Source: an uncultured Candidatus Saccharibacteria bacterium (GTDB lineage Bacteria > Patescibacteriota > Minisyncoccia > Phycocordibacterales > GWA1-40-21). From it: 35,596 nt of DNA. Position 1 is the first letter of the stretch; every line of letters begins with the position of its first letter. Under the pieces are notes generated by a model. It ran no database searches. It was not told the DNA's origin and worked only from the letters and a program-made list of their open reading frames with translations. This document shows positions 4,197 to 35,155 of the stretch, piece by piece. The position numbers were made by a program, and so were the translations under genes. Location: assembly GCA_964455475.1 (NCBI GenBank), contig CAYVWL010000003.1, positions 1-35,596 on the forward strand. Direction: 5' to 3'.

Positions 4197-4249
4197 TTGA
4201 CGTAATGAGCACCTTATATTATGATAGCAAAATAATCATGAAAAGTCAA
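4197..4249. promoter_or_regulatory. face-to-face overlapping promoters: plus strand TTGACG-17-TATGAT (uvrC); minus strand TTGACT-17-TATCAT (peptide operon)
   Basis: Plus strand: -35 at 4197-4202 and -10 at 4220-4225. Minus strand: -35 is rc of 4244-4249 and -10 is rc of 4221-4226. The two -10 boxes share one palindromic TATGATA. Confidence 0.55.
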
Positions 4250-5524
4250 GACCTAAAAAAGTATAAATTATCGGATGCGCCTGGTGTTTACTTATTCAAG
4301 CAGAATAAGGCTATTTTGTATGTTGGTAAGGCCACTTCACTTCGAGATAGGGTGCGGAGTTATTTTTCTGGTGATTTGATTAGCACTCGTGGACCCTTGA
4401 TTGTGGATATGGTTTTCCGGGCTAATAGAATTGATTTTATCAAGACAGATTCTGTGCTGGAGGCACTGATATTGGAAGCAAACGAAATAAAAAAACATCA
4501 GCCAAAATACAATACTAAAGAAAAGGATAATAAAAGCTTTAATTATGTCATCATCACTGATGAAGACTTTCCTCGCGTTCTAATTATACGTGGTCGGGAG
4601 ATAGAGAAAAATTTGCTTTATCCTATCAAGGAGAAATTTGGCCCTTTTACAAATTCCACGCAAATGCAGGTGGCCCTTAAAATCATCCGTAAAATATTTC
4701 CATTTCGGGACAAATGTGTTCCATACAATCAAAATACTGATGTGGACAATAAGTCTACGACCGTGGAATTATTGTCTACATCAGGAAAAGTGAATAGGCC
4801 GTGTTTTAACCGGCAGATTGGGCTGTGCCCGGGTGTGTGTGACGGCAGTATCAGTCAAAAGGATTATAGAAAGATTATAAAAAATATCAGCTTGTTTTTT
4901 GCTGGTAAGAAAAAACTGATCATTAGAAATTTAAAGAAGGAGATGGGCATATTCGCGCGAATGGGTAAATACGAGATGGCGGGGGAGTTGCGGAATAAAA
5001 TTTTTGCTCTGAATCATATTCAGGATGTCGCTTTGATTAGTGACCAAAGCTCGGCCTTTGGTATGTCCAAAAGCCAAGCCTTGGTCTCCACTCGCATCGA
5101 AGCCTATGACATTGCCCACCTGTCTGGTACAAATAATGTGGGGGTGATGGTGGTGATGGAGAATAATGAATTTAAGAGATCTGATTACCGTAAATTTATA
5201 ATCAGAAATAGTCAGGGTAATGATATTGGCGCTTTGCAGGAAATGCTTGAAAGGCGCCTACGGCATACAGAGTGGCCAAGGCCCGATTTGATTGTGGTAG
5301 ATGGGGGATTAGCACAAATGAATGTGGCCAAGGAGGTCACCCGTCAACGTGGCACGTTGACGGCTCTGGTTGGTGTGACCAAGGATAATTATCATAGACC
5401 AAAAGCAATAATAGGGGATGAGAAGATAATAGGAAAATATAAAAAACAAATTTTATTGATTAATAATGAAGCACATCGCTTTGCTATTGCTTTTCACCGA
5501 AAGAAAAGGGGTGTTACCCCGTAG
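4238..5524 (+). CDS. uvrC: excinuclease ABC subunit C (UvrC), lacking the C-terminal (HhH)2 domain
   Basis: GIY-YIG motif (GVYLF...ILYVGKA...RVRSYF), UVR motif, and EndoV-like domain (YDIAH...VVDGG...NEAHRFAI). ATG4238 sits 12 nt after the -10 box. The ORF track's start at 4205 lies inside the promoter. Confidence 0.9.
   Translation: MKSQDLKKYKLSDAPGVYLFKQNKAILYVGKATSLRDRVRSYFSGDLISTRGPLIVDMVFRANRIDFIKTDSVLEALILEANEIKKHQPKYNTKEKDNKSFNYVIITDEDFPRVLIIRGREIEKNLLYPIKEKFGPFTNSTQMQVALKIIRKIFPFRDKCVPYNQNTDVDNKSTTVELLSTSGKVNRPCFNRQIGLCPGVCDGSISQKDYRKIIKNISLFFAGKKKLIIRNLKKEMGIFARMGKYEMAGELRNKIFALNHIQDVALISDQSSAFGMSKSQALVSTRIEAYDIAHLSGTNNVGVMVVMENNEFKRSDYRKFIIRNSQGNDIGALQEMLERRLRHTEWPRPDLIVVDGGLAQMNVAKEVTRQRGTLTALVGVTKDNYHRPKAIIGDEKIIGKYKKQILLINNEAHRFAIAFHRKKRGVTP
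4738..4783 (+). repeat. 46-nt in-frame palindrome inside uvrC
   Basis: Arms TGATGTGGACAATAA / TTATTGTCTACATCA pair at 14 Watson-Crick plus 1 G-U. It encodes the extra segment TDVDNKSTTVELLSTS. Confidence 0.8.
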
Positions 5525-5589
5525 TAGATTTTACTATCAAAAAATCAAAGGATTTTTCATAAAATCCAATAGTAAAATTCACTACGGGG
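5517..5589 (+). terminator. 73-nt compound hairpin covering the uvrC stop codon (CCCGTAGT...ACTACGGG family)
   Basis: 21-nt arms CCCCGTAGTAGATTTTACTAT / ATAGTAAAATTCACTACGGGG with an inner hairpin GGATTTT/AAAATCC. Confidence 0.5.
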
Positions 5590-5605
5590 TGTTATACTGT
5601 AGCGT

Positions 5606-8762: not shown

Positions 8763-8836
8763 GGGCGATTAGCTCAGCTGGTTAGAGCGTACGATTCACA
8801 TTCGTAAGGTCGGAGGTTCAAATCCTCCATCGCCCA
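8763..8836 (+). tRNA. tRNA-Val (anticodon CAC)
   Basis: Cloverleaf by hand. Anticodon loop TTCACAT, T-loop TTCAAAT. 74 nt. Confidence 0.9.
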
Positions 8837-8972
8837 CAAAAGCATTTTATTGCTTTTGTGGGAGGATTTGAAAGGCGGAGCCATATCGAGCTAGAAAGCG
8901 AGATGGCGAGCCGGGGTCGAGAAATTTTTGAGCGACGGCGAAAAAATATTCGTGACCGATTCCTCCTCAATT
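8837..8972 (+). repeat. structured GC-richer spacer between tRNAs (inverted copy of the tRNA-Val T-arm, plus an element related to the mnmA insertion)
   Basis: 8852-8872 is complementary to 8817-8828 plus 8834-8843. CGAGAAATTTTTGAGC...GAAAAAATATTCGTG resembles 21390-21423. Confidence 0.5.
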
Positions 8973-9043
8973 GGGCCTATAGTTCAGTGGTAGAACGTGT
9001 CCATGGCATGGACGAGGCGCGAGTCCGATTCTCGCTAGGTCCA
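8973..9043 (+). tRNA. tRNA-Ala (anticodon GGC)
   Basis: Cloverleaf by hand. G3:U70 present. Anticodon loop ATGGCAT. Unusual T-loop TCCGATT. 71 nt. Confidence 0.85.
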
Positions 9044-9067
9044 CTTTATAAATTAATTAAAAACCAA

Positions 9068-14603: not shown

Positions 14604-17495
14604 ATGAAAGAATATAACCATCTGAAAATCGAGCCAAAATGGCGCAAGGTGTGGGAGAAGAAGGGGATAAATAAGACCAAGGATACCACCAAGGGAAAGA
14701 AATTCTACGTTCTGGATATGTTTCCCTACCCATCTGGTGCCGGCCTACATGTGGGGCATCCGCGCGGTTATATTGCTACAGATGTATACTCCCGTTTCAA
14801 GAAAATGCATGGTTTCAACGTCCTGCACCCTATGGGCTGGGATGCTTTTGGTTTGCCGGCTGAAAACTATGCTTTAAAAAATAAAATCCACCCAGACAAG
14901 GCCACCAAGGAAAATGTTAAAAGATTTAAGAATCAAATTTCCATCATTGGTCTGAATTATGATTGGTCCCGTGAGATAAATACCACGGACCCAGCTTATT
15001 ATAAATGGACACAGTGGATTTTTTTGCAGCTGTTTAAGAAGGGTTTGGCCTATGAGAGCTATGAGCCGATAAATTGGTGCCCATCCTGCAAAACCGGTCT
15101 GGCCAATGAAGATCTGGAGGATGGCAAATGTGAGCGCTGTGGCAGTGTGGTGGAGAAAAAGCCAATGCGCCAGTGGGTGCTAAAAATTACGGATTATGCC
15201 GATAGATTGTTAAAGGATATTGATGTTTTGAATTGGCCAGAGTCTATCAAGGAGAGTCAGAGAAATTGGATTGGGCGTAGTGAAGGTTCGGAATTGTGGT
15301 TTAATATTAAAAATTTTGAGGGGAAAATCAGAGTATTTACTACCAGGGCGGATACATTTTACGGTGTCACCTATGTAGTGCTGGCGCCGGAGAATAAATT
15401 AGTGGATGAATTGAAACCATTAATAAAGAATTGGGCGGAGGTGGAAAAATATCGAGCCAGTGTAAAAAATAAAACGGAAATTGAAAGGACCGCAGAAAAT
15501 AAAGAAAAAACCGGTGTCAGACTGGTGGGTGTGGAGGCTAAACACCCACTGACCAAGGAAATTATTCCGGTCTTTATTGCGGATTATGTTTTGAATAATT
15601 ATGGTACCGGCGCGGTCATGGCTGTCCCGGCACATGATGAGCGTGATTTTGCCTTTGCCAAGAAATATAATTTACCGATCAAGCAGGTTATTGCTCCATA
15701 TTTTACTAAATCGGAAGGCGACAGAGACCAAGTTAAGCCAGATAAGGAAACAGTGAAGAGGGTGACGGCATATGCTCTTGTGTTAAACAGAAAGACGAAT
15801 AAATTTTTATGTTTGGACTGGGGTAAATTTGGTTGGCGTTCAGGGATAATCGGTGGACTAGACGAGGGAGAAGATTTTAAGGATGCAGCAATCCGCGAGA
15901 TCCATGAAGAGACAGGCTATACTAATGTGAAATTTATTAGGGAACTAGGTGGTGAGCAACATAATCATTTTTTTGCTGCCCACAAGGATATAAATAGATA
16001 TGGTATTGGAAGAGGAATGCTATTTGAGCTTGTGGATGAAGCTAGAGACACTGTTTCTGCGGAAGATACAAAAAATCACACTACTGTATGGATTGACTCA
16101 GATAAAATGGAAGGATGGTTAAATCTTGAAGCGTTTAAATATATGTGGCAGGTATATAAATCAAACTCGGATTGTTTTATAGGTAATGGTATATTGATCA
16201 ACTCGGCGGAATTTGATGGTTTGAATAGTGAGGAAGCCAAGAAGAAGATTACGGATCTGGCGGACGGGGTGGAGAAGGTGACTTATAAATTAAAGGATTG
16301 GGTGTTTTCTAGACAGCGTTATTGGGGCGAGCCGATTCCGCTTATACACTGCGCAAAATGTGGGGTAGTGGCCGTGCCGGAAAAAGATTTGCCGGTCAAA
16401 TTACCAAAGGTAAAATTTTATGAGCCAACAGGGACGGGAGAATCACCTCTGGCCAAGATTGACAAATGGGTGAATACCAAATGTCCAAAATGCGGTGGCA
16501 AGGGCAAGAGAGAGACAAACACCATGCCTCAATGGGCCGGCTCTAGCTGGTATTATTTACGGTACGTTGATCCCAAAAACAAGAAATCCTTAATTGATAA
16601 AAAGAAAGAAAAGTTCTGGCTAAAAAACGGGGTGGATCTTTATGTGGGTGGGACCGAGCATGCTACCCGGCACCTTATCTATGCGCGCTTTTGGCACAAA
16701 TTCCTATATGATATTGGTGTAGTGAGTGAGAAGGAACCATTTCATCAGCTGAAAAATCAGGGGATGATTTTGGGTTCTGATGCCCGCAAGATGAGCAAGC
16801 GCTGGGGTAATGTGGTAAATCCAGATGAAGTGGTGAAAAATGTGGGTGCCGATACCCTGCGCGTGTATGAGATGTTTATGGGGCCATTTGAGCAGGAGAT
16901 TGCCTGGAGTACGGACAATATGGTGGGCTCACGACGCTTTTTGGAGAAGGTGTGGCGTGTCGGACAAAATTTTCTCCAAAAATCATCCTCTCCACTTAAC
17001 GGAGTACCTAATCGTTCCGAGGATGTTTCTGGAGAAAATTTTCAAACTCTGCTTCATAAAACCATCAAGAAAGTGACAGAGGATATTTTGAATTTTAATT
17101 TCAACACGGCCGTCTCCGCCTTTATGATTTTGGTGAATCTAGCGGAAAAAACAAATATTTCTCGTCGTGACTATGAGACAATATTAAAACTTTTGGCACC
17201 ATTTGCTCCGCATCTCACGGAGGAGATATGGGCTAATTTGGGCAATAGGAAGTCCATTCATTTGGAATCTTGGCCGAAATATGATGAGAAGAAAATTGTT
17301 TCTAACAAAATTGTTATTAGTGTCCAGATAAATGGCCGACCAAGAGCCTCGTTTGAGATGCCCGTAGGGTCTACCCAGGCGGAAGTGGAGAAAGTGGCCA
17401 TGGCCAGAGAGGATGTTTTGAAGTGGGTCACGGGGAAGGAGATCAAAAAGAAAATGTTTATCAAAGAAAAGATTTTGGCTTTGATTACTGATTAG
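14604..17495 (+). CDS. leuS: leucine--tRNA ligase with an inserted Nudix hydrolase domain
   Basis: HVGH and KMSKR motifs. CP1 editing motifs TTRADTFYG and GTGAVMAVPAHDERD. Nudix box GGLDEGEDFKDAAIREIHEETGY at 15852-15920. Confidence 0.96.
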   Translation: MKEYNHLKIEPKWRKVWEKKGINKTKDTTKGKKFYVLDMFPYPSGAGLHVGHPRGYIATDVYSRFKKMHGFNVLHPMGWDAFGLPAENYALKNKIHPDKATKENVKRFKNQISIIGLNYDWSREINTTDPAYYKWTQWIFLQLFKKGLAYESYEPINWCPSCKTGLANEDLEDGKCERCGSVVEKKPMRQWVLKITDYADRLLKDIDVLNWPESIKESQRNWIGRSEGSELWFNIKNFEGKIRVFTTRADTFYGVTYVVLAPENKLVDELKPLIKNWAEVEKYRASVKNKTEIERTAENKEKTGVRLVGVEAKHPLTKEIIPVFIADYVLNNYGTGAVMAVPAHDERDFAFAKKYNLPIKQVIAPYFTKSEGDRDQVKPDKETVKRVTAYALVLNRKTNKFLCLDWGKFGWRSGIIGGLDEGEDFKDAAIREIHEETGYTNVKFIRELGGEQHNHFFAAHKDINRYGIGRGMLFELVDEARDTVSAEDTKNHTTVWIDSDKMEGWLNLEAFKYMWQVYKSNSDCFIGNGILINSAEFDGLNSEEAKKKITDLADGVEKVTYKLKDWVFSRQRYWGEPIPLIHCAKCGVVAVPEKDLPVKLPKVKFYEPTGTGESPLAKIDKWVNTKCPKCGGKGKRETNTMPQWAGSSWYYLRYVDPKNKKSLIDKKKEKFWLKNGVDLYVGGTEHATRHLIYARFWHKFLYDIGVVSEKEPFHQLKNQGMILGSDARKMSKRWGNVVNPDEVVKNVGADTLRVYEMFMGPFEQEIAWSTDNMVGSRRFLEKVWRVGQNFLQKSSSPLNGVPNRSEDVSGENFQTLLHKTIKKVTEDILNFNFNTAVSAFMILVNLAEKTNISRRDYETILKLLAPFAPHLTEEIWANLGNRKSIHLESWPKYDEKKIVSNKIVISVQINGRPRASFEMPVGSTQAEVEKVAMAREDVLKWVTGKEIKKKMFIKEKILALITD

Positions 17496-19965: not shown

Positions 19966-20934
19966 ATGTGGTATGAGTATGTGTACAAAAAACAAAGCTA
20001 TCTTCTCTACATTGTATTAGTACTTTTATTTTTTATTTTATTAATTTCCTATTCTTTCTGTAGAGCCCCAAGGGATTTTCCCACTAATTCCATGTATACC
20101 GTGGAGAAAGGAGTGGGACTGACAGCCTTGGCGGATGATTTGCAAGATAATAATACTATTAAATCACCATTTCTTTTTAAAGTATTTTCGGTTTTGACTG
20201 GTGGAACCAAGGGTATCATGGCGGGGGATTATGTCCTGGAGGGGCCACAGAGTGTCATCAGGTTGGCTTACCGCTTTACTCACGGTGAATTTGATCTTGA
20301 TCCAGTAAGGATAACTATTCCTGAGGGATTGAATATCTTTGAGGTTGCCAAACTGGTTTCAGTAAAATTTTCTAAAATTACGGAAGAGGAATTTATTACT
20401 GAGGGTAAGGATTTTGAAGGTTATCTTTTCCCTGATACTTATACCTTCCTGCCAAATGCCACAGCCGATGAGATAATAAAAAAGATGCGTCAGACTTTTC
20501 AGGAAAAGATCCAGACTCTTGATGCGGAAATTTCATCCTCAAAAAGATCACGGACGGATATAATAAAGATGGCGTCTATTATTGAGAAGGAAGTAAGAAA
20601 ATATGAGACCATGCAAACAGTCGCCGGTATTCTCTGGAAGAGAATTGATATTGGTATGCCTCTACAGGTGGACGCTTCTTTTAAATATATTAATGGTGAG
20701 GGGACAAAAGACTTGTCATTGGATGATTTAAAAATCGATTCACCCTATAACAGCTACTTGTATAAAGGCCTACCGCCTACTCCGATATCAAACCCCGGTT
20801 TGGAGTCCATTAGAGCCACATTGAATCCAGTTAAAACTGATTATTTATATTTTCTAACAGATAAGAAGGGTTATATGCATTATGCCAAAACTTTTGCCGA
20901 GCATTTGCAAAATAAGAATTTATACCTAAAATAG
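19966..20934 (+). CDS. mltG: endolytic murein transglycosylase MltG (YceG family)
   Basis: EGYLFPDTY, ASIIEKE and GLPPTPISNPG motifs. Confidence 0.9.
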   Translation: MWYEYVYKKQSYLLYIVLVLLFFILLISYSFCRAPRDFPTNSMYTVEKGVGLTALADDLQDNNTIKSPFLFKVFSVLTGGTKGIMAGDYVLEGPQSVIRLAYRFTHGEFDLDPVRITIPEGLNIFEVAKLVSVKFSKITEEEFITEGKDFEGYLFPDTYTFLPNATADEIIKKMRQTFQEKIQTLDAEISSSKRSRTDIIKMASIIEKEVRKYETMQTVAGILWKRIDIGMPLQVDASFKYINGEGTKDLSLDDLKIDSPYNSYLYKGLPPTPISNPGLESIRATLNPVKTDYLYFLTDKKGYMHYAKTFAEHLQNKNLYLK

Positions 20935-20938
20935 GTAG

Positions 20939-22114
20939 ATGAGCAAAAAAGGGTATAAAAAGAAAGTGTTTGTGGGCCTGTCCGGCGGAGTAGATAGCTC
21001 GGTCTCGGCTGCTTTGCTAAAAAAAGCCGGTTATGAGGTGACCGGAGTCTTTATCAAGGTATGGACACCAGACTTTTTTGACTGCACCTGGCGGGAGGAT
21101 AGGTTGGATGCTATGCGGGTCTGCGCCAAGCTGAAAATACCATTTGTCACTTTGGATTTGGAGAAGGAGTATAAGAAGGAGGTGGTGGACTATATGATAA
21201 CGGAATATGAGGCAGGCCGGACGCCAAATCCGGATGTGATGTGCAATAAATATATTAAATTTGGCGGTTTTTTTGATTGGGCCATGAAGCAGGGCGCGGA
21301 TTATGTTGCCACCGGACATTATGCCAAAATCGCTCCTGCAGAAGGTAAGGTAATGCTTTCGGAGAGACTTGGGAGCGCGACTGGCGCGAGCACGAGGAAT
21401 TTTTTAGCAAAAAAATATCCGTGCTCTCAGAAAGTATTACCTTATCTTCTGCTTGCTGGGGATGATAAGAATAAAGATCAGTCATATTTTCTCTGGACCC
21501 TGACACAAAAGCAACTAACAAAAACCTTATTTCCAGTGGGGGATTTGGAAAAGCCCGCGGTACGAAAACTAGCTAAAAAATTTGGTCTGGAAACTGCCAC
21601 TAAGAAGGACAGTCAGGGCCTGTGCTTTATTGGCAAGGTGGATATGGCAGATTTCCTGAAACATTTTATTAAAAGTAAACCTGGTTTTGTCTTAAATGAG
21701 GCTGGAGAGAAAATCGGTGAGCATGACGGTGCGGTATTTTATACCATTGGCCAGCGCCATGGCTTTACGCTGACCGAAAACTCTCCGTCGGACAAACCAC
21801 ATTATGTAATAAGTAAGGATATTAAGAATAATACTATTACTGTCAGCACAAAAATTTTAAAGAGTGAGAATGTTTCTGCAAAAGAGTTTATTCTTGATAA
21901 GGTAAATTGGACATCTGATGGGCTACCAGATTTAGATAAAATATATCAAGCTAGAATCAGATATCGTGGAGAATTGTCCAAAAGTAAAATTGAAGAATTG
22001 GAGAAAGGTAAAATCAAGATAATCTTTATCAGATCCCAAAAGTCACCGGCCCCCGGCCAATCTATTGTCATCTATGATGAGGAAGTGTGTCTCGGTGGTG
22101 GAATTATTTCCTAG
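20939..22114 (+). CDS. mnmA: tRNA 2-thiouridine(34) synthase MnmA carrying an in-frame palindromic insertion
   Basis: SGGVDSSV PP-loop and KDQSYFL motif. About 31-39 extra aa between GHYA and KDQSYFL. Confidence 0.93.
   Translation: MSKKGYKKKVFVGLSGGVDSSVSAALLKKAGYEVTGVFIKVWTPDFFDCTWREDRLDAMRVCAKLKIPFVTLDLEKEYKKEVVDYMITEYEAGRTPNPDVMCNKYIKFGGFFDWAMKQGADYVATGHYAKIAPAEGKVMLSERLGSATGASTRNFLAKKYPCSQKVLPYLLLAGDDKNKDQSYFLWTLTQKQLTKTLFPVGDLEKPAVRKLAKKFGLETATKKDSQGLCFIGKVDMADFLKHFIKSKPGFVLNEAGEKIGEHDGAVFYTIGQRHGFTLTENSPSDKPHYVISKDIKNNTITVSTKILKSENVSAKEFILDKVNWTSDGLPDLDKIYQARIRYRGELSKSKIEELEKGKIKIIFIRSQKSPAPGQSIVIYDEEVCLGGGIIS
21338..21452 (+). repeat. 115-nt in-frame palindrome inside mnmA
   Basis: The 29-nt arms (21338-21366 and 21424-21452) pair at 26 Watson-Crick plus 2 G-U plus 1 mismatch. 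GC-rich centre. Confidence 0.85.
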
Positions 22115-22137
22115 CTTCATGTTATAATGTGAGCACG

Positions 22138-23070
22138 ATGCCACCAAAACAAGGAATTTATATTATAAAATCGGACGGAGTGCGCGAGCTTTTTGATAGA
22201 GAAAAGCTTTTGCGTTCTTTGCGCAAGATTGGTACTGACTCCAAAACCGCGGAAATGATTGTGACCAAGATTGAGACTGGCCTAGCAGAAGGTAGCACTA
22301 CCAAGGAAATATATAGGCGGGCTTTTACCTTACTGAAGAAACATCAGCGCCCTGTTGCCCTCCGTTACTCCCTGAAACGGGCAATTGCCGAGCTTGGCCC
22401 ATCGGGTTTTCCGTTTGAGGATTATGCGGCGGAAATATTTAGAGCCCAGGGCTATACGGCCGTCACAGATCAAATAGCCATGGGTACTTGTGTTCCGCAT
22501 GAGATAGATGTGGTGGCTTATAATGATAAGGAACTTGTAGCTGTAGAAGCTAAATTTCATACGGATTTTGGTACCCGGTCTGACTTGAAGGTGGCTCTCT
22601 ATATCAAGGCGCGTTTTGAAGATTTACAAAATGGTATTTTTAAATATGCCCTGCCCGGTCAAGGAGCCAAGGAAAGAAAGATGACCAAAGGCATGCTCAT
22701 TACCAATACCAAATTTTCCTCCACGGCCATTCAGTATGGTGAATGCGCTCATTTGAATATGGTGGGTTGGAATTATCCGCACAATGGTAATCTCCATCAA
22801 ATAATTGAGAAATTAAATTTAGTTCCTCTCACTGTGCTCACTACCCTGAGTCAGACCGAGAAAAAAATGTTTTTAGCTAACGATATCGTCTTGTCAAAAC
22901 ATTTGGGTGATTACGGCCTGCTTAAAAGTTACGGTTTTGATGATGATAAGGCCCAGACCGTAGTGAAGGAGGTCTATGATTTGTGTAAAGAATGTGTGGG
23001 GCCTGAGGAGCTGGCCAAAATTCAAAGAATGGCCGAAGAAAAAAATAAAAAAAATGAGCCAGTATTATAA
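22138..23070 (+). CDS. ATP-cone domain fused to a restriction-endonuclease-fold (Mrr-like PD-(D/E)xK) domain
   Basis: IYIIKSDGVRELFDREKLLRSL is ATP-cone-like. HEIDVVA...VAVEAK matches D...ExK. ATG lies 9 nt after TGtTATAAT. Confidence 0.7.
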   Translation: MPPKQGIYIIKSDGVRELFDREKLLRSLRKIGTDSKTAEMIVTKIETGLAEGSTTKEIYRRAFTLLKKHQRPVALRYSLKRAIAELGPSGFPFEDYAAEIFRAQGYTAVTDQIAMGTCVPHEIDVVAYNDKELVAVEAKFHTDFGTRSDLKVALYIKARFEDLQNGIFKYALPGQGAKERKMTKGMLITNTKFSSTAIQYGECAHLNMVGWNYPHNGNLHQIIEKLNLVPLTVLTTLSQTEKKMFLANDIVLSKHLGDYGLLKSYGFDDDKAQTVVKEVYDLCKECVGPEELAKIQRMAEEKNKKNEPVL

Positions 23071-34604: not shown

Positions 34605-34645
34605 GATGAAATAAACGATACGCGGTCGCGTGTCAGTTATTTCAT
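34605..34645 (+). repeat. repeat family C copy 1 (41-nt palindrome GATGAAATAA...ACGCGGTCGCGT...TTATTTCAT)
   Basis: 38/41 identical to 35115-35155, in direct orientation. Confidence 0.9.
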
Positions 34646-35114: not shown

Positions 35115-35155
35115 GATGAAATAAATGGTACGCGGTCGCGTGTAAGTTATTTCAT
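35115..35155 (+). repeat. repeat family C copy 2
   Basis: See 34605-34645. Confidence 0.9.

Follow-up and report, generated by a model that had tools for sequence, protein, structure and literature searches.

Why should the gene for a core tRNA-modification enzyme carry a long, nearly perfect DNA palindrome within its reading frame? The question arises from our window, the whole stretch of DNA analysed here, which comprises 35,596 nt of contig CAYVWL010000003.1 (assembly GCA_964455475.1) from an uncultured Candidatus Saccharibacteria bacterium. The gene is mnmA, and the 115-nt palindrome within it is the longest inverted repeat (within 150 nt) of the window. We find that this hairpin belongs to a family of palindromic repeats in Patescibacteria (Paceibacteria/Parcubacteria-type genomes) that is widespread and had not been described before, and that an insert of ∼31 residues is present in an otherwise intact MnmA.

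The insert in mnmA and its palindrome

Pfam identifies the host open reading frame (ORF) as MnmA (PF03054, PF20259 and PF20258), with ∼8000 homologues, and the protein retains the PP-loop motif SGGVDSS and both catalytic-type cysteines (NPDVMCNK and DSQGLCFIG). The gene and the parts of the palindrome are as follows.

20939–22114, plus strand: mnmA (tRNA 2-thiouridine synthase), an intact ORF of 391 aa
21338–21452, plus strand: the whole palindromic element, stem P1 and core, 115 nt; its canonical strand is the plus strand, which is the mRNA sense strand
21350–21442, plus strand: the extra segment relative to uninterrupted orthologues, which we take as the insert, 93 nt (V138–P168), with boundaries ambiguous by a few nt
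21338–21366, plus strand: left arm of P1, 29 nt, of which the outer ∼12 nt (GCAGAAGGTAAG) are host-type codons for AEGK
21367–21374, plus strand: P1–P2 junction ACTTGGGA, with the family consensus ACTTGSGA
21375–21387, plus strand: hairpin P2, GCGC-GACTG-GCGC, from the fold and the family alignment
21391–21423, plus strand: A/T-topped hairpin P3, CACGAGGAATTTTTT-AGCA-AAAAAATATCCGTG, including the 27-mer used for the collection scan (21394–21420)
21424–21452, plus strand: right arm of P1, 29 nt, of which the outer ∼10 nt (TATCTTCTGC) are conserved host codons for YLL(L)

Alignment of MnmA orthologues was proposed in the first-pass annotation of this DNA as the way to delimit the insertion. In three empty orthologues (L206, L207 and L127, where L-numbers denote fetched loci of relatives) the site reads GAT AAA followed directly by TAT CTA, with nothing in between, and this codon boundary places the extra segment at the 93 nt listed above. 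The distance from GHY to DQSY is 51 residues in the window MnmA versus 16–22 in uninterrupted orthologues. The PDB matches of the window protein are 2hma and 2der; the former, the solved structure of S. pneumoniae MnmA, has 5 residues opposite window residues 136–170 and can be aligned up to residue 390 of the full-length window protein. Relative to the PDB sequences of MnmA the gap amounts to 35 residues. The palindrome is open in the mnmA frame, as originally claimed, and encodes ...AEGKVMLSERLGSATGASTRNFLAKKYPCSQKVLPYLLL..., the number of extra residues being ∼31 by the orthologue and 2hma alignments.

Since the length of the element is a multiple of three and it is open in the host frame, it would be translated through as a loop of ∼31 residues. 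The question of whether that loop lies at the surface was addressed with an AlphaFold2 model of the window MnmA, which has a mean predicted local distance difference test score (pLDDT) of 82.6 and matches MnmA crystal structures at template modelling (TM) scores of 0.75–0.83. In the model, residues ∼134–170 have pLDDT values of 51–64 and are placed between strands 129–133 and 169–173, which is the tip of a β-hairpin. The intact ORF, the catalytic motifs and the model together suggest that the insert is translated as a flexible surface loop that the enzyme tolerates.

Compared by eye, the two arms are 90% complementary and enclose a 57-nt centre; they form 26 Watson–Crick pairs, two G.T pairs and one G.A mismatch, the same counts at the same coordinates as first described. 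The centre folds into two hairpins, P3, which corresponds to the A/T-stem hairpin already noticed there, and P2, which is additional. The sense RNA has a folding energy of −60.3 kcal/mol (z = −7.1), a value reached by none of 200 dinucleotide shuffles, and the antisense has −48.8 kcal/mol (z = −5.6). Of the six frames of the core, four are open when read from the sequence, and the coding copies described below make use of every one of these.

One MnmA homologue is truncated at the element. P0122 (179 aa, in the P0002 cluster) is normal up to the element core and then continues in unrelated residues, which suggests that the assembly broke or was wrongly joined at the palindrome; short-read assemblies can be fragmented by elements of this kind.

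A dispersed family with a conserved core and variable arms

Further family members were sought with the exact 27-mer from the centre of the element in a metagenome contig collection, followed by a profile hidden Markov model (HMM) search of 2.3 Mb of fetched loci. More than 120 independent metagenome contigs, among the matches listed, contain the exact 27-mer. The profile HMM found 138 copies, 109 intergenic (∼80%) and 29 within ORFs, with a median length of ∼100 nt (range 54–138), and all 29 coding copies are open in frame. The family of mobile palindromes that had been conjectured from the single copy in mnmA gains support from this spread over coding and non-coding DNA, together with the close orthologues that are empty at the same codon boundary.

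Intergenic copies mostly begin a few bases past the upstream stop codon. Among the 22 that are most tightly flanked by ORFs, we found no gene split by a copy; they part distinct genes, for example map and its neighbour, or rpmE/prfA and rpsG/fusA-type pairs. Copies are also present in the leaders of prfA and tgt. The coding hosts, by Pfam, are MnmA, TsaD, MiaA (IPPT), RNase HII, a PfkB kinase, a phosphoglucomutase-family protein (PGM_PMM), Wzy_C-TPR and a UvrD-PDDEXK helicase-nuclease, and nine host families are recognised by Pfam on both sides of the insert. Wherever Pfam resolves its position, a coding copy sits in a domain linker or loop: the PGM_PMM copy lies between domains I and II, and MnmA is occupied at two sites, the second between the PRC-barrel and the C-terminal barrel. 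Prominent among the hosts, within the matches listed, are modification enzymes of the tRNA anticodon loop: MnmA (two sites), TsaD and MiaA contain copies in frame, and tgt has one in its leader (L018, L030, L037, L038, L041, L057, L087, L098, L103; L034, L052; L047; L020).

The copies are sparse. In 1.3 Mb from 80 species-representative loci, taken without ascertainment by the 27-mer, there are only five copies, all diverged; the window has one canonical copy in 35.6 kb, and ∼10 extra copies lie in the 0.85 Mb around ascertained ones. Only three tRNAs in the window pass the gathering thresholds of Rfam, and over 21250–21550 a scan to E ≤ 10 gave nothing better than E = 1.4. There were no matches in viral contigs (exact 27-mer and degenerate 26-mer), GenBank phages or PLSDB plasmids, and a literature search on the nucleotide and peptide strings of the element, on palindromic elements and on in-frame insertions in Patescibacteria found nothing relevant.

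These data bear on the simplest explanation of the locus, which is that of an ordinary lineage-specific protein insertion, its palindromy being a by-product of coding or chance. The hairpin tip of MnmA is variable, with inserts of 28–60 residues there in many lineages, and Lys-rich and Leu-rich strands are intrinsically part-complementary (e.g. TAGATAAATATCTA in the empty orthologue L206). We nevertheless give this explanation next to no credence, given that no shuffle folds equally well, that the same core occurs at more than 100 non-coding sites, and that one DNA, in different orientations and frames, yields three unrelated peptides in homologues. The spread of the 27-mer, the family alignment and the coding copies in other genes refute it. 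A peptide conserved in homologues without the palindrome, which the first-pass annotation had named as grounds for refuting its own reading, was not found: since the core can lie either way round, the peptides of insert-bearing homologues are unrelated. Nor is the element a single copy whose arm complementarity is lost in close relatives, there being many copies with arms that still pair.

Aligned on the 27-mer, the copies share one plan: a copy-specific stem of ∼18–35 bp (P1), ACTTGSGA, P2, GAG and P3. In the family, P2 is a 4-bp hairpin with the loop GAC(N)G, and P3 is CACGAGGAATTTTTT-AGCA-AAAAAATATCCGTG. We computed covariation on 75 non-redundant copies. All 22 positions of P1 are paired in 77–89% of copies, with several pair types at every one. 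P2 is paired in 98.7%, with compensatory changes at 4/4 pairs (e.g. GGCT/AGCC, GCCC/GGGC and ACAC/GTGT), and as a control, sliding the partner by 1–3 columns left just 37–55% pairing. The P3 hairpins of diverged copies are also compensated, for example TTTTTC-AGCA-GAAAAA and CAAGA...TACTTG. From 28 copies, canonical as well as diverged, we built a covariance model, which matches the mnmA element at 21349–21436 with 97.7 bits (E = 6e-27). Five loci (L013, L015, L035, L058 and L115) have a variant core, in which a nested GC-rich perfect palindrome (CTGCCTGCCGGCAGGCAGG, sometimes expanded) stands at the base of P3.

At orthologous sites where four-fold sites are saturated (22–48% identity), the core is 87–100% identical and the arms are diverged. 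Such conservation raises the possibility that the repeat is a DNA element domesticated by the host, with the core as a binding or assembly site for a host protein (in chromosome organisation, replication or DNA uptake) that is maintained by host selection at a few sites per genome. The low copy density agrees with this proposal, as do the strand bias relative to GC skew described below and the finding that the same spacers (rpmE–prfA, downstream of map and upstream of tgt) are filled in different genomes. On the other hand, most relatives do without the element, as the five diverged copies in 80 related species attest, and even the mnmA site is occupied in a patchy way. That unrelated genes have near-identical arms points to recent duplication into new sites, degenerate copies exist, and the covariation of P2 implies that a folded strand matters rather than the sequence of the duplex. 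We therefore consider domestication of this kind improbable.

The near-identical arms are those of a subfamily, TGCAAAACTC...GAGTTTTGCA, ∼35 nt long, which is found in MiaA, Wzy-like, UvrD-like and PfkB genes and in several spacers. Since arms of this length are common to unrelated genes, they appear to belong to the spreading unit, and the idea that arms are copied from the target at each insertion is weakened by such subfamilies. A ruler mechanism with a fixed arm length was rejected, as arm lengths are broadly distributed from 18 to 31 bp. The outermost ∼10 bp differ between copies with the same inner arms (L081), and in mnmA the outermost base pairs are host codons; a preference for insertion at the centres of short palindromes is possible. 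One group of copies with other arms (L028, L056, L048, L042, L009, L010, L039, L071, L077, L086 and L092, whose sites are probably orthologous) has GCGAG/CGAGCGAG on both sides, then yTTTAy. These flanks could be one ancestral 8-bp duplication at an orthologous site, or the result of insertion into a short tandem repeat.

Strand and orientation of the core

Which strand is the one that folds? Family-wide, the stems contain 95 G.T pairs versus 41 A.C pairs when scored on the canonical strand (that reading GAGGAATTTTTTAGC...). The ratio of G.T to A.C is 25:16 where the canonical strand is sense to the host gene, 47:14 where it is antisense and 23:11 where host direction is ambiguous. Of 43 arm clusters, 27 have an excess of G.T and 5 an excess of A.C (p = 1e-4), and the excess of wobble pairs is distributed over stem positions 7–21. 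Because this bias tracks the strand of the element regardless of host transcription, the stem appears to be selected on the element strand and not on the transcript; a single-stranded form of the DNA agrees better with the bias than does a structure in the mRNA. In 68 of 91 loci (p = 2.5e-6) the canonical strand is also the C-rich one, the window copy being in the minority.

The first-pass annotation had pointed out that the G–U pairs of the mnmA stem form only on the sense RNA. At this locus the sense strand does fold better, but the counts above provide no argument for the sense RNA across the family. Coding copies are antisense in 22 cases and sense in 7, with 38 versus 26 in co-directional spacers, and in most copies the mRNA bears a weaker, A.C-containing version of the stem. 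This is relevant to the proposal that the element is a functional mRNA structure, either a cis-regulatory or processing signal or a segment removed from the transcript. In its favour, the sense strand of the window is very stable and more so than the antisense, the covariation of P1, P2 and P3 amounts to selection on a folded single strand, and many copies lie in operon spacers or 5′ leaders (e.g. rpmE–prfA and upstream of tgt). However, the variable orientation relative to host genes and the 47 A.C versus 14 G.U pairs that fall to the mRNA when the canonical strand is antisense show that the transcript is not the selected strand, and Rfam offers no match even at E = 10. Excision at the RNA level, which had been entertained from the start, is unsupported: no tightly flanked copy splits a gene (0/22), and the coding copies (29/29 in frame) all use one of the four open frames. 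Taken together, these points leave us sceptical, and we judge a functional mRNA structure to be very improbable.

Turning to orientation, about half of the 120 best MnmA homologues, all from Patescibacteria, have an insert at exactly the same spot. In one group the insert peptide contains ...GASTRNFLAKKYPC... as in the window, and in another it contains ...STDIFLLKNSSCSRQSRSQ..., the peptide that the minus strand of the window would encode. The closest relative, L001, is identical to window 21368–21423 at 56 of 56 nt in the reversed direction; L002 is 98% identical over the same stretch and L004 has 40 identical nt. The arms in the DNA of four relatives (L001, L002, L004 and one other) differ from locus to locus yet still pair. 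The mnmA gene of L001 has 85–98% nucleotide identity to that of the window along most of its length and 27–48% across 21299–21455. In a comparison of window 20339–22700 with L001, the yceG-like neighbour is 58–83% identical and the downstream region is not collinear (L001 has an extra ORF of 426 aa); high identity of mnmA beside diverged neighbours may reflect recombinational exchange of the gene.

The core has been reversed between orthologous sites at least four times. Two of these cases concern the site in question here, one of them involving an unrelated palindrome that we call family B, the present family being family A.

Flip 1: mnmA hairpin site, window versus L001
Flip 2: mnmA C-terminal site, L057 versus eight others
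Flip 3: an intergenic spacer with homologous arms, L031/L102 versus L095
Flip 4: mnmA hairpin site, palindrome family B, in which the DNA for RPDHSPDQ gives EIRGPES when read as its reverse complement

No flips were seen inside protein clusters at 90% identity: the full-length members of the eight clusters checked have one orientation each.

A possible explanation for these flips is that the element is a recoding intragenic inverton, in which the 57-nt core is programmed to invert between the 29-nt arms and so produces MnmA isoforms with ...RLGSATGASTRNFLAKKYPC... or ...STDIFLLKNSSCSRQSRSQ... by phase variation. Bacteroides offers documented cases of recoding intragenic invertons with a similar size (57 bp; PMC10028968). 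Close relatives have the core in either orientation at one and the same site, each open in frame, and four of its six frames are open. Either orientation is also found at the C-terminal site of mnmA, in a spacer between genes and in family B at mnmA. Set against this, the sequences of the arms vary among copies, so that they contain no common recombinase site, an invertase is not consistently nearby, and orientation is uniform in the eight clusters. Recoding is irrelevant for the intergenic copies, which are the majority, and the flips could equally well have arisen in the course of evolution by rare recombination, or by template switching, between the inverted repeats. For these reasons a programmed inverton seems to us to have only a small chance of being correct.

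The β-hairpin tip of MnmA receives other palindromes as well. Among L126–L205, from other Paceibacteria, many unrelated palindromic inserts occupy it (e.g. L152, L163, L168, L188 and L128). The insert of L152 is another long-stem, two-hairpin element (−88 kcal/mol), L188 has a pair of the GTCATTCCCGCGGAGGCGGGAATCC type (−73 kcal/mol), family B is present in both orientations, and at some loci the inserts are low-complexity and tandem-like. The tip is either a hotspot or an unusually permissive position.

Mobility, other repeats in the window and known systems

Our conclusion from these results is that the mnmA hairpin is probably a dispersed non-coding palindromic repeat, similar in kind to the palindromic elements of Rickettsia (RPEs), that is read through in a permissive loop. 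Each copy, ∼100–135 nt long, would form a three-way junction, in which a variable but paired P1 bears the conserved asymmetric core (ACTTGSGA, P2, GAG and P3). Such a repeat may have spread, now or once, as a unit of core plus arms, because the near-identical subfamilies with ∼35-nt arms occur in unrelated genes; mobility itself is suggested by this kind of distribution. The core would be able to flip between its inverted arms, since orthologous sites hold both orientations. Its functional form is likely to be one specific strand, folded on itself as single-stranded DNA rather than as mRNA, and a putative structure-specific enzyme would recognise that folded strand, following the logic of IS200/IS605-derived or repetitive extragenic palindrome (REP)-type elements and of attC sites. 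That the intragenic minority sits in linkers and loops is as expected if selection removes disruptive insertions.

Several observations weigh against this interpretation. The core is far better conserved than the arms at orthologous sites, which a purely selfish immobile remnant would not explain and which leaves room for a host-level role, although the conservation is due in part to the ascertainment of copies with the exact 27-mer, the five unbiased copies all being diverged. The copies agree neither in a target-site duplication nor in a terminal motif, and their arms have no sharply defined length; a duplication is absent at mnmA and in the TGCAAAAC subfamily. Gene orientation is a confounder of the GC-skew bias. 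At the mnmA site, family A is patchy on a crude, poorly resolved neighbour-joining tree, a pattern that repeated gain, loss or allelic exchange may each have produced. Finally, no transposase or other mobilising gene was found in the flanks, which cover a small part of each genome, and tblastn of IS200, IS608 and RAYT (REP-associated tyrosine transposase), with approximate query sequences, against the 2.3 Mb of flanks gave E values of 0.18 or above.

A bolder version of the same idea, possible but in our view doubtful, is that the family represents a new type of bacterial element: an asymmetric T- or Y-shaped hairpin of one strand, handled by a structure-specific enzyme of Patescibacteria, with a flipping core that would alternate two unrelated loop peptides in mnmA, tsaD, miaA and others. 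If true, this would be a new mechanism of mobilisation, and proteins would be recoded by a built-in source, in a group whose genomes are regarded as nearly devoid of mobile DNA.

Apart from the mnmA element, the covariance model finds one diverged relative in the window.

8868–8967, plus strand: diverged family relative in the spacer between tRNA-Val (8763–8837) and tRNA-Ala (8973–9044)

This site scores 23.7 bits (E = 1.4e-4), the next 11.9 bits. Its outer stem is GGAGGA/TCCTCC and its P3-like hairpin GGTCGAGAAATTTTT...AAAAAATATTCGTGACC, giving the layout of a stem with two hairpins, and over its 100 nt it folds with z = −4.0; it resembles the GGGGTCGC...GTGAC subfamily of L067 and L139. BLAST for a second full copy in the window returned only chance-level words, with a spacer match of just 14 nt. 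The likeness that had been noticed between this spacer and the centre of the mnmA element is thus real but distant, and the model score together with the shared layout indicates that the window holds two family members. A repeat between two tRNA genes would be co-transcribed with them.

Three further repeats were observed. At 16966–17042, an inverted repeat of 17 nt with 94% complementarity and a spacing of 43 nt (fold z = −3.1) is found within the 963-aa ORF 14604–17495, which from its translation we take to be LeuRS-like, in a variable linker ...QNFLQKSSSPLNGVPNRSEDVSGENFQ.... Its arms, TTTTCTCCAAAAA and TTTCTGGAGAAAA, resemble inner arms of the family, the core is absent, and the covariance model gives only 11.9 bits; possibly this is a further palindromic insert in frame, or what is left of one. 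A near-perfect palindrome, ATGAAATAAACGATACGCG/CGCGTGTCAGTTATTTCAT, occurs in two copies 510 nt apart (34606–34645 and 35116–35155) and is a different small repeat. The third, a 22-nt inverted repeat at 5516–5590 (91% complementary, 31 nt apart), spans the end of ORF 4205–5524 and the adjoining spacer, and has no relation to the family by BLAST.

Genomes of Patescibacteria are small and dense and are usually described as poor in mobile DNA. The present family extends across many species of this group, in operon spacers and in in-frame linkers of core enzymes. Length differences of 20–40 residues between orthologues from Patescibacteria can therefore stem from insertion of a repeat rather than from adaptive domain evolution, and peptide strings such as STDIFLLKNSSCS or GASTRNFLAKKYPC are signatures of a DNA repeat, not of protein families. 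Inserts of this kind can mislead alignments, clustering and structure prediction. The strand-specific pairing and the flips provide handles for finding an enzyme that acts on the hairpins.

Among known systems, the closest in kind are the RPEs, palindromic repeats of ∼150 bp that are frequently found in frame within Rickettsia genes (PMC10969869). Both are small (∼100–150 bp), dispersed, non-coding palindromes of a reduced-genome lineage, with a sizeable share in frame in unrelated housekeeping genes (PMC10969869), and in both systems read-through, presumed in the present case, adds peptide segments that the fold can accommodate. The precedent of selfish DNA within genes would thus be extended from Rickettsia to a second, unrelated reduced-genome lineage. 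The likeness is by description and not by sequence comparison, and the phylum is another one, so that homology would not be anticipated. The present family also differs in that it combines a conserved centre with variable arms, is ∼80% intergenic, holds its core in both orientations at the same site and has a strand-specific wobble bias; in addition, several palindrome families that are unrelated to each other occupy a single host site, the mnmA hairpin.

A miniature inverted-repeat transposable element (MITE) has, by definition, terminal inverted repeats that are conserved, target-site duplications and a parent insertion sequence (IS). In contrast, the present family lacks family-wide conserved termini, its arms differing at every position and being shared only within subfamilies, no regular duplication was seen, and a parent element was not found in the flanks. 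Bacterial MITEs (Correia/NEMIS, ERIC, BOX, RUP and others) are short, non-autonomous hairpin repeats that are mostly intergenic, with occasional in-frame fusions (PMC10969869). The resemblance lies in forming hairpins and in lying mostly between genes, often directly past stop codons.

A third group consists of elements that are handled as single strands. The palindrome-associated transposable elements (PATEs) derived from IS200/IS605, REPs and bacterial interspersed mosaic elements (BIMEs) with their RAYTs, and integron attC sites all function through hairpins of one DNA strand, whose structure is kept by compensatory change, and IS200/IS605 elements show an orientation bias relative to replication. 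Compared by description, the wobble asymmetry of the present family and its GC-skew bias, confounded as the latter is with gene direction, are similar, whereas no HUH/Y1 transposase or integrase was found near its copies, which have no conserved tetranucleotide for cleavage at their ends. A REP is considerably shorter, and a genome holds far more of them, and attC sites have conserved ends and a variable centre and flank cassettes; the present family is longer and sparser than REPs, and its conserved centre is unlike attC.

In the Bacteroides inverton BT0375, a 57-bp intragenic segment between inverted repeats is open in both orientations and so allows two versions of a protein (PMC10028968). 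A short intragenic segment between inverted repeats, open either way, is common to both cases. In Bacteroides, however, switching is enzyme-mediated and occurs at the level of the population, while here orientation is uniform within the eight 90% clusters checked, the arms have no conserved recombinase site and the copies are mostly non-genic. Thus the family differs from both RPEs and classical MITEs in its conserved centre and variable arms, its flips, its strand-specific pairing and the repeated occupation of the mnmA tip by several palindromes.

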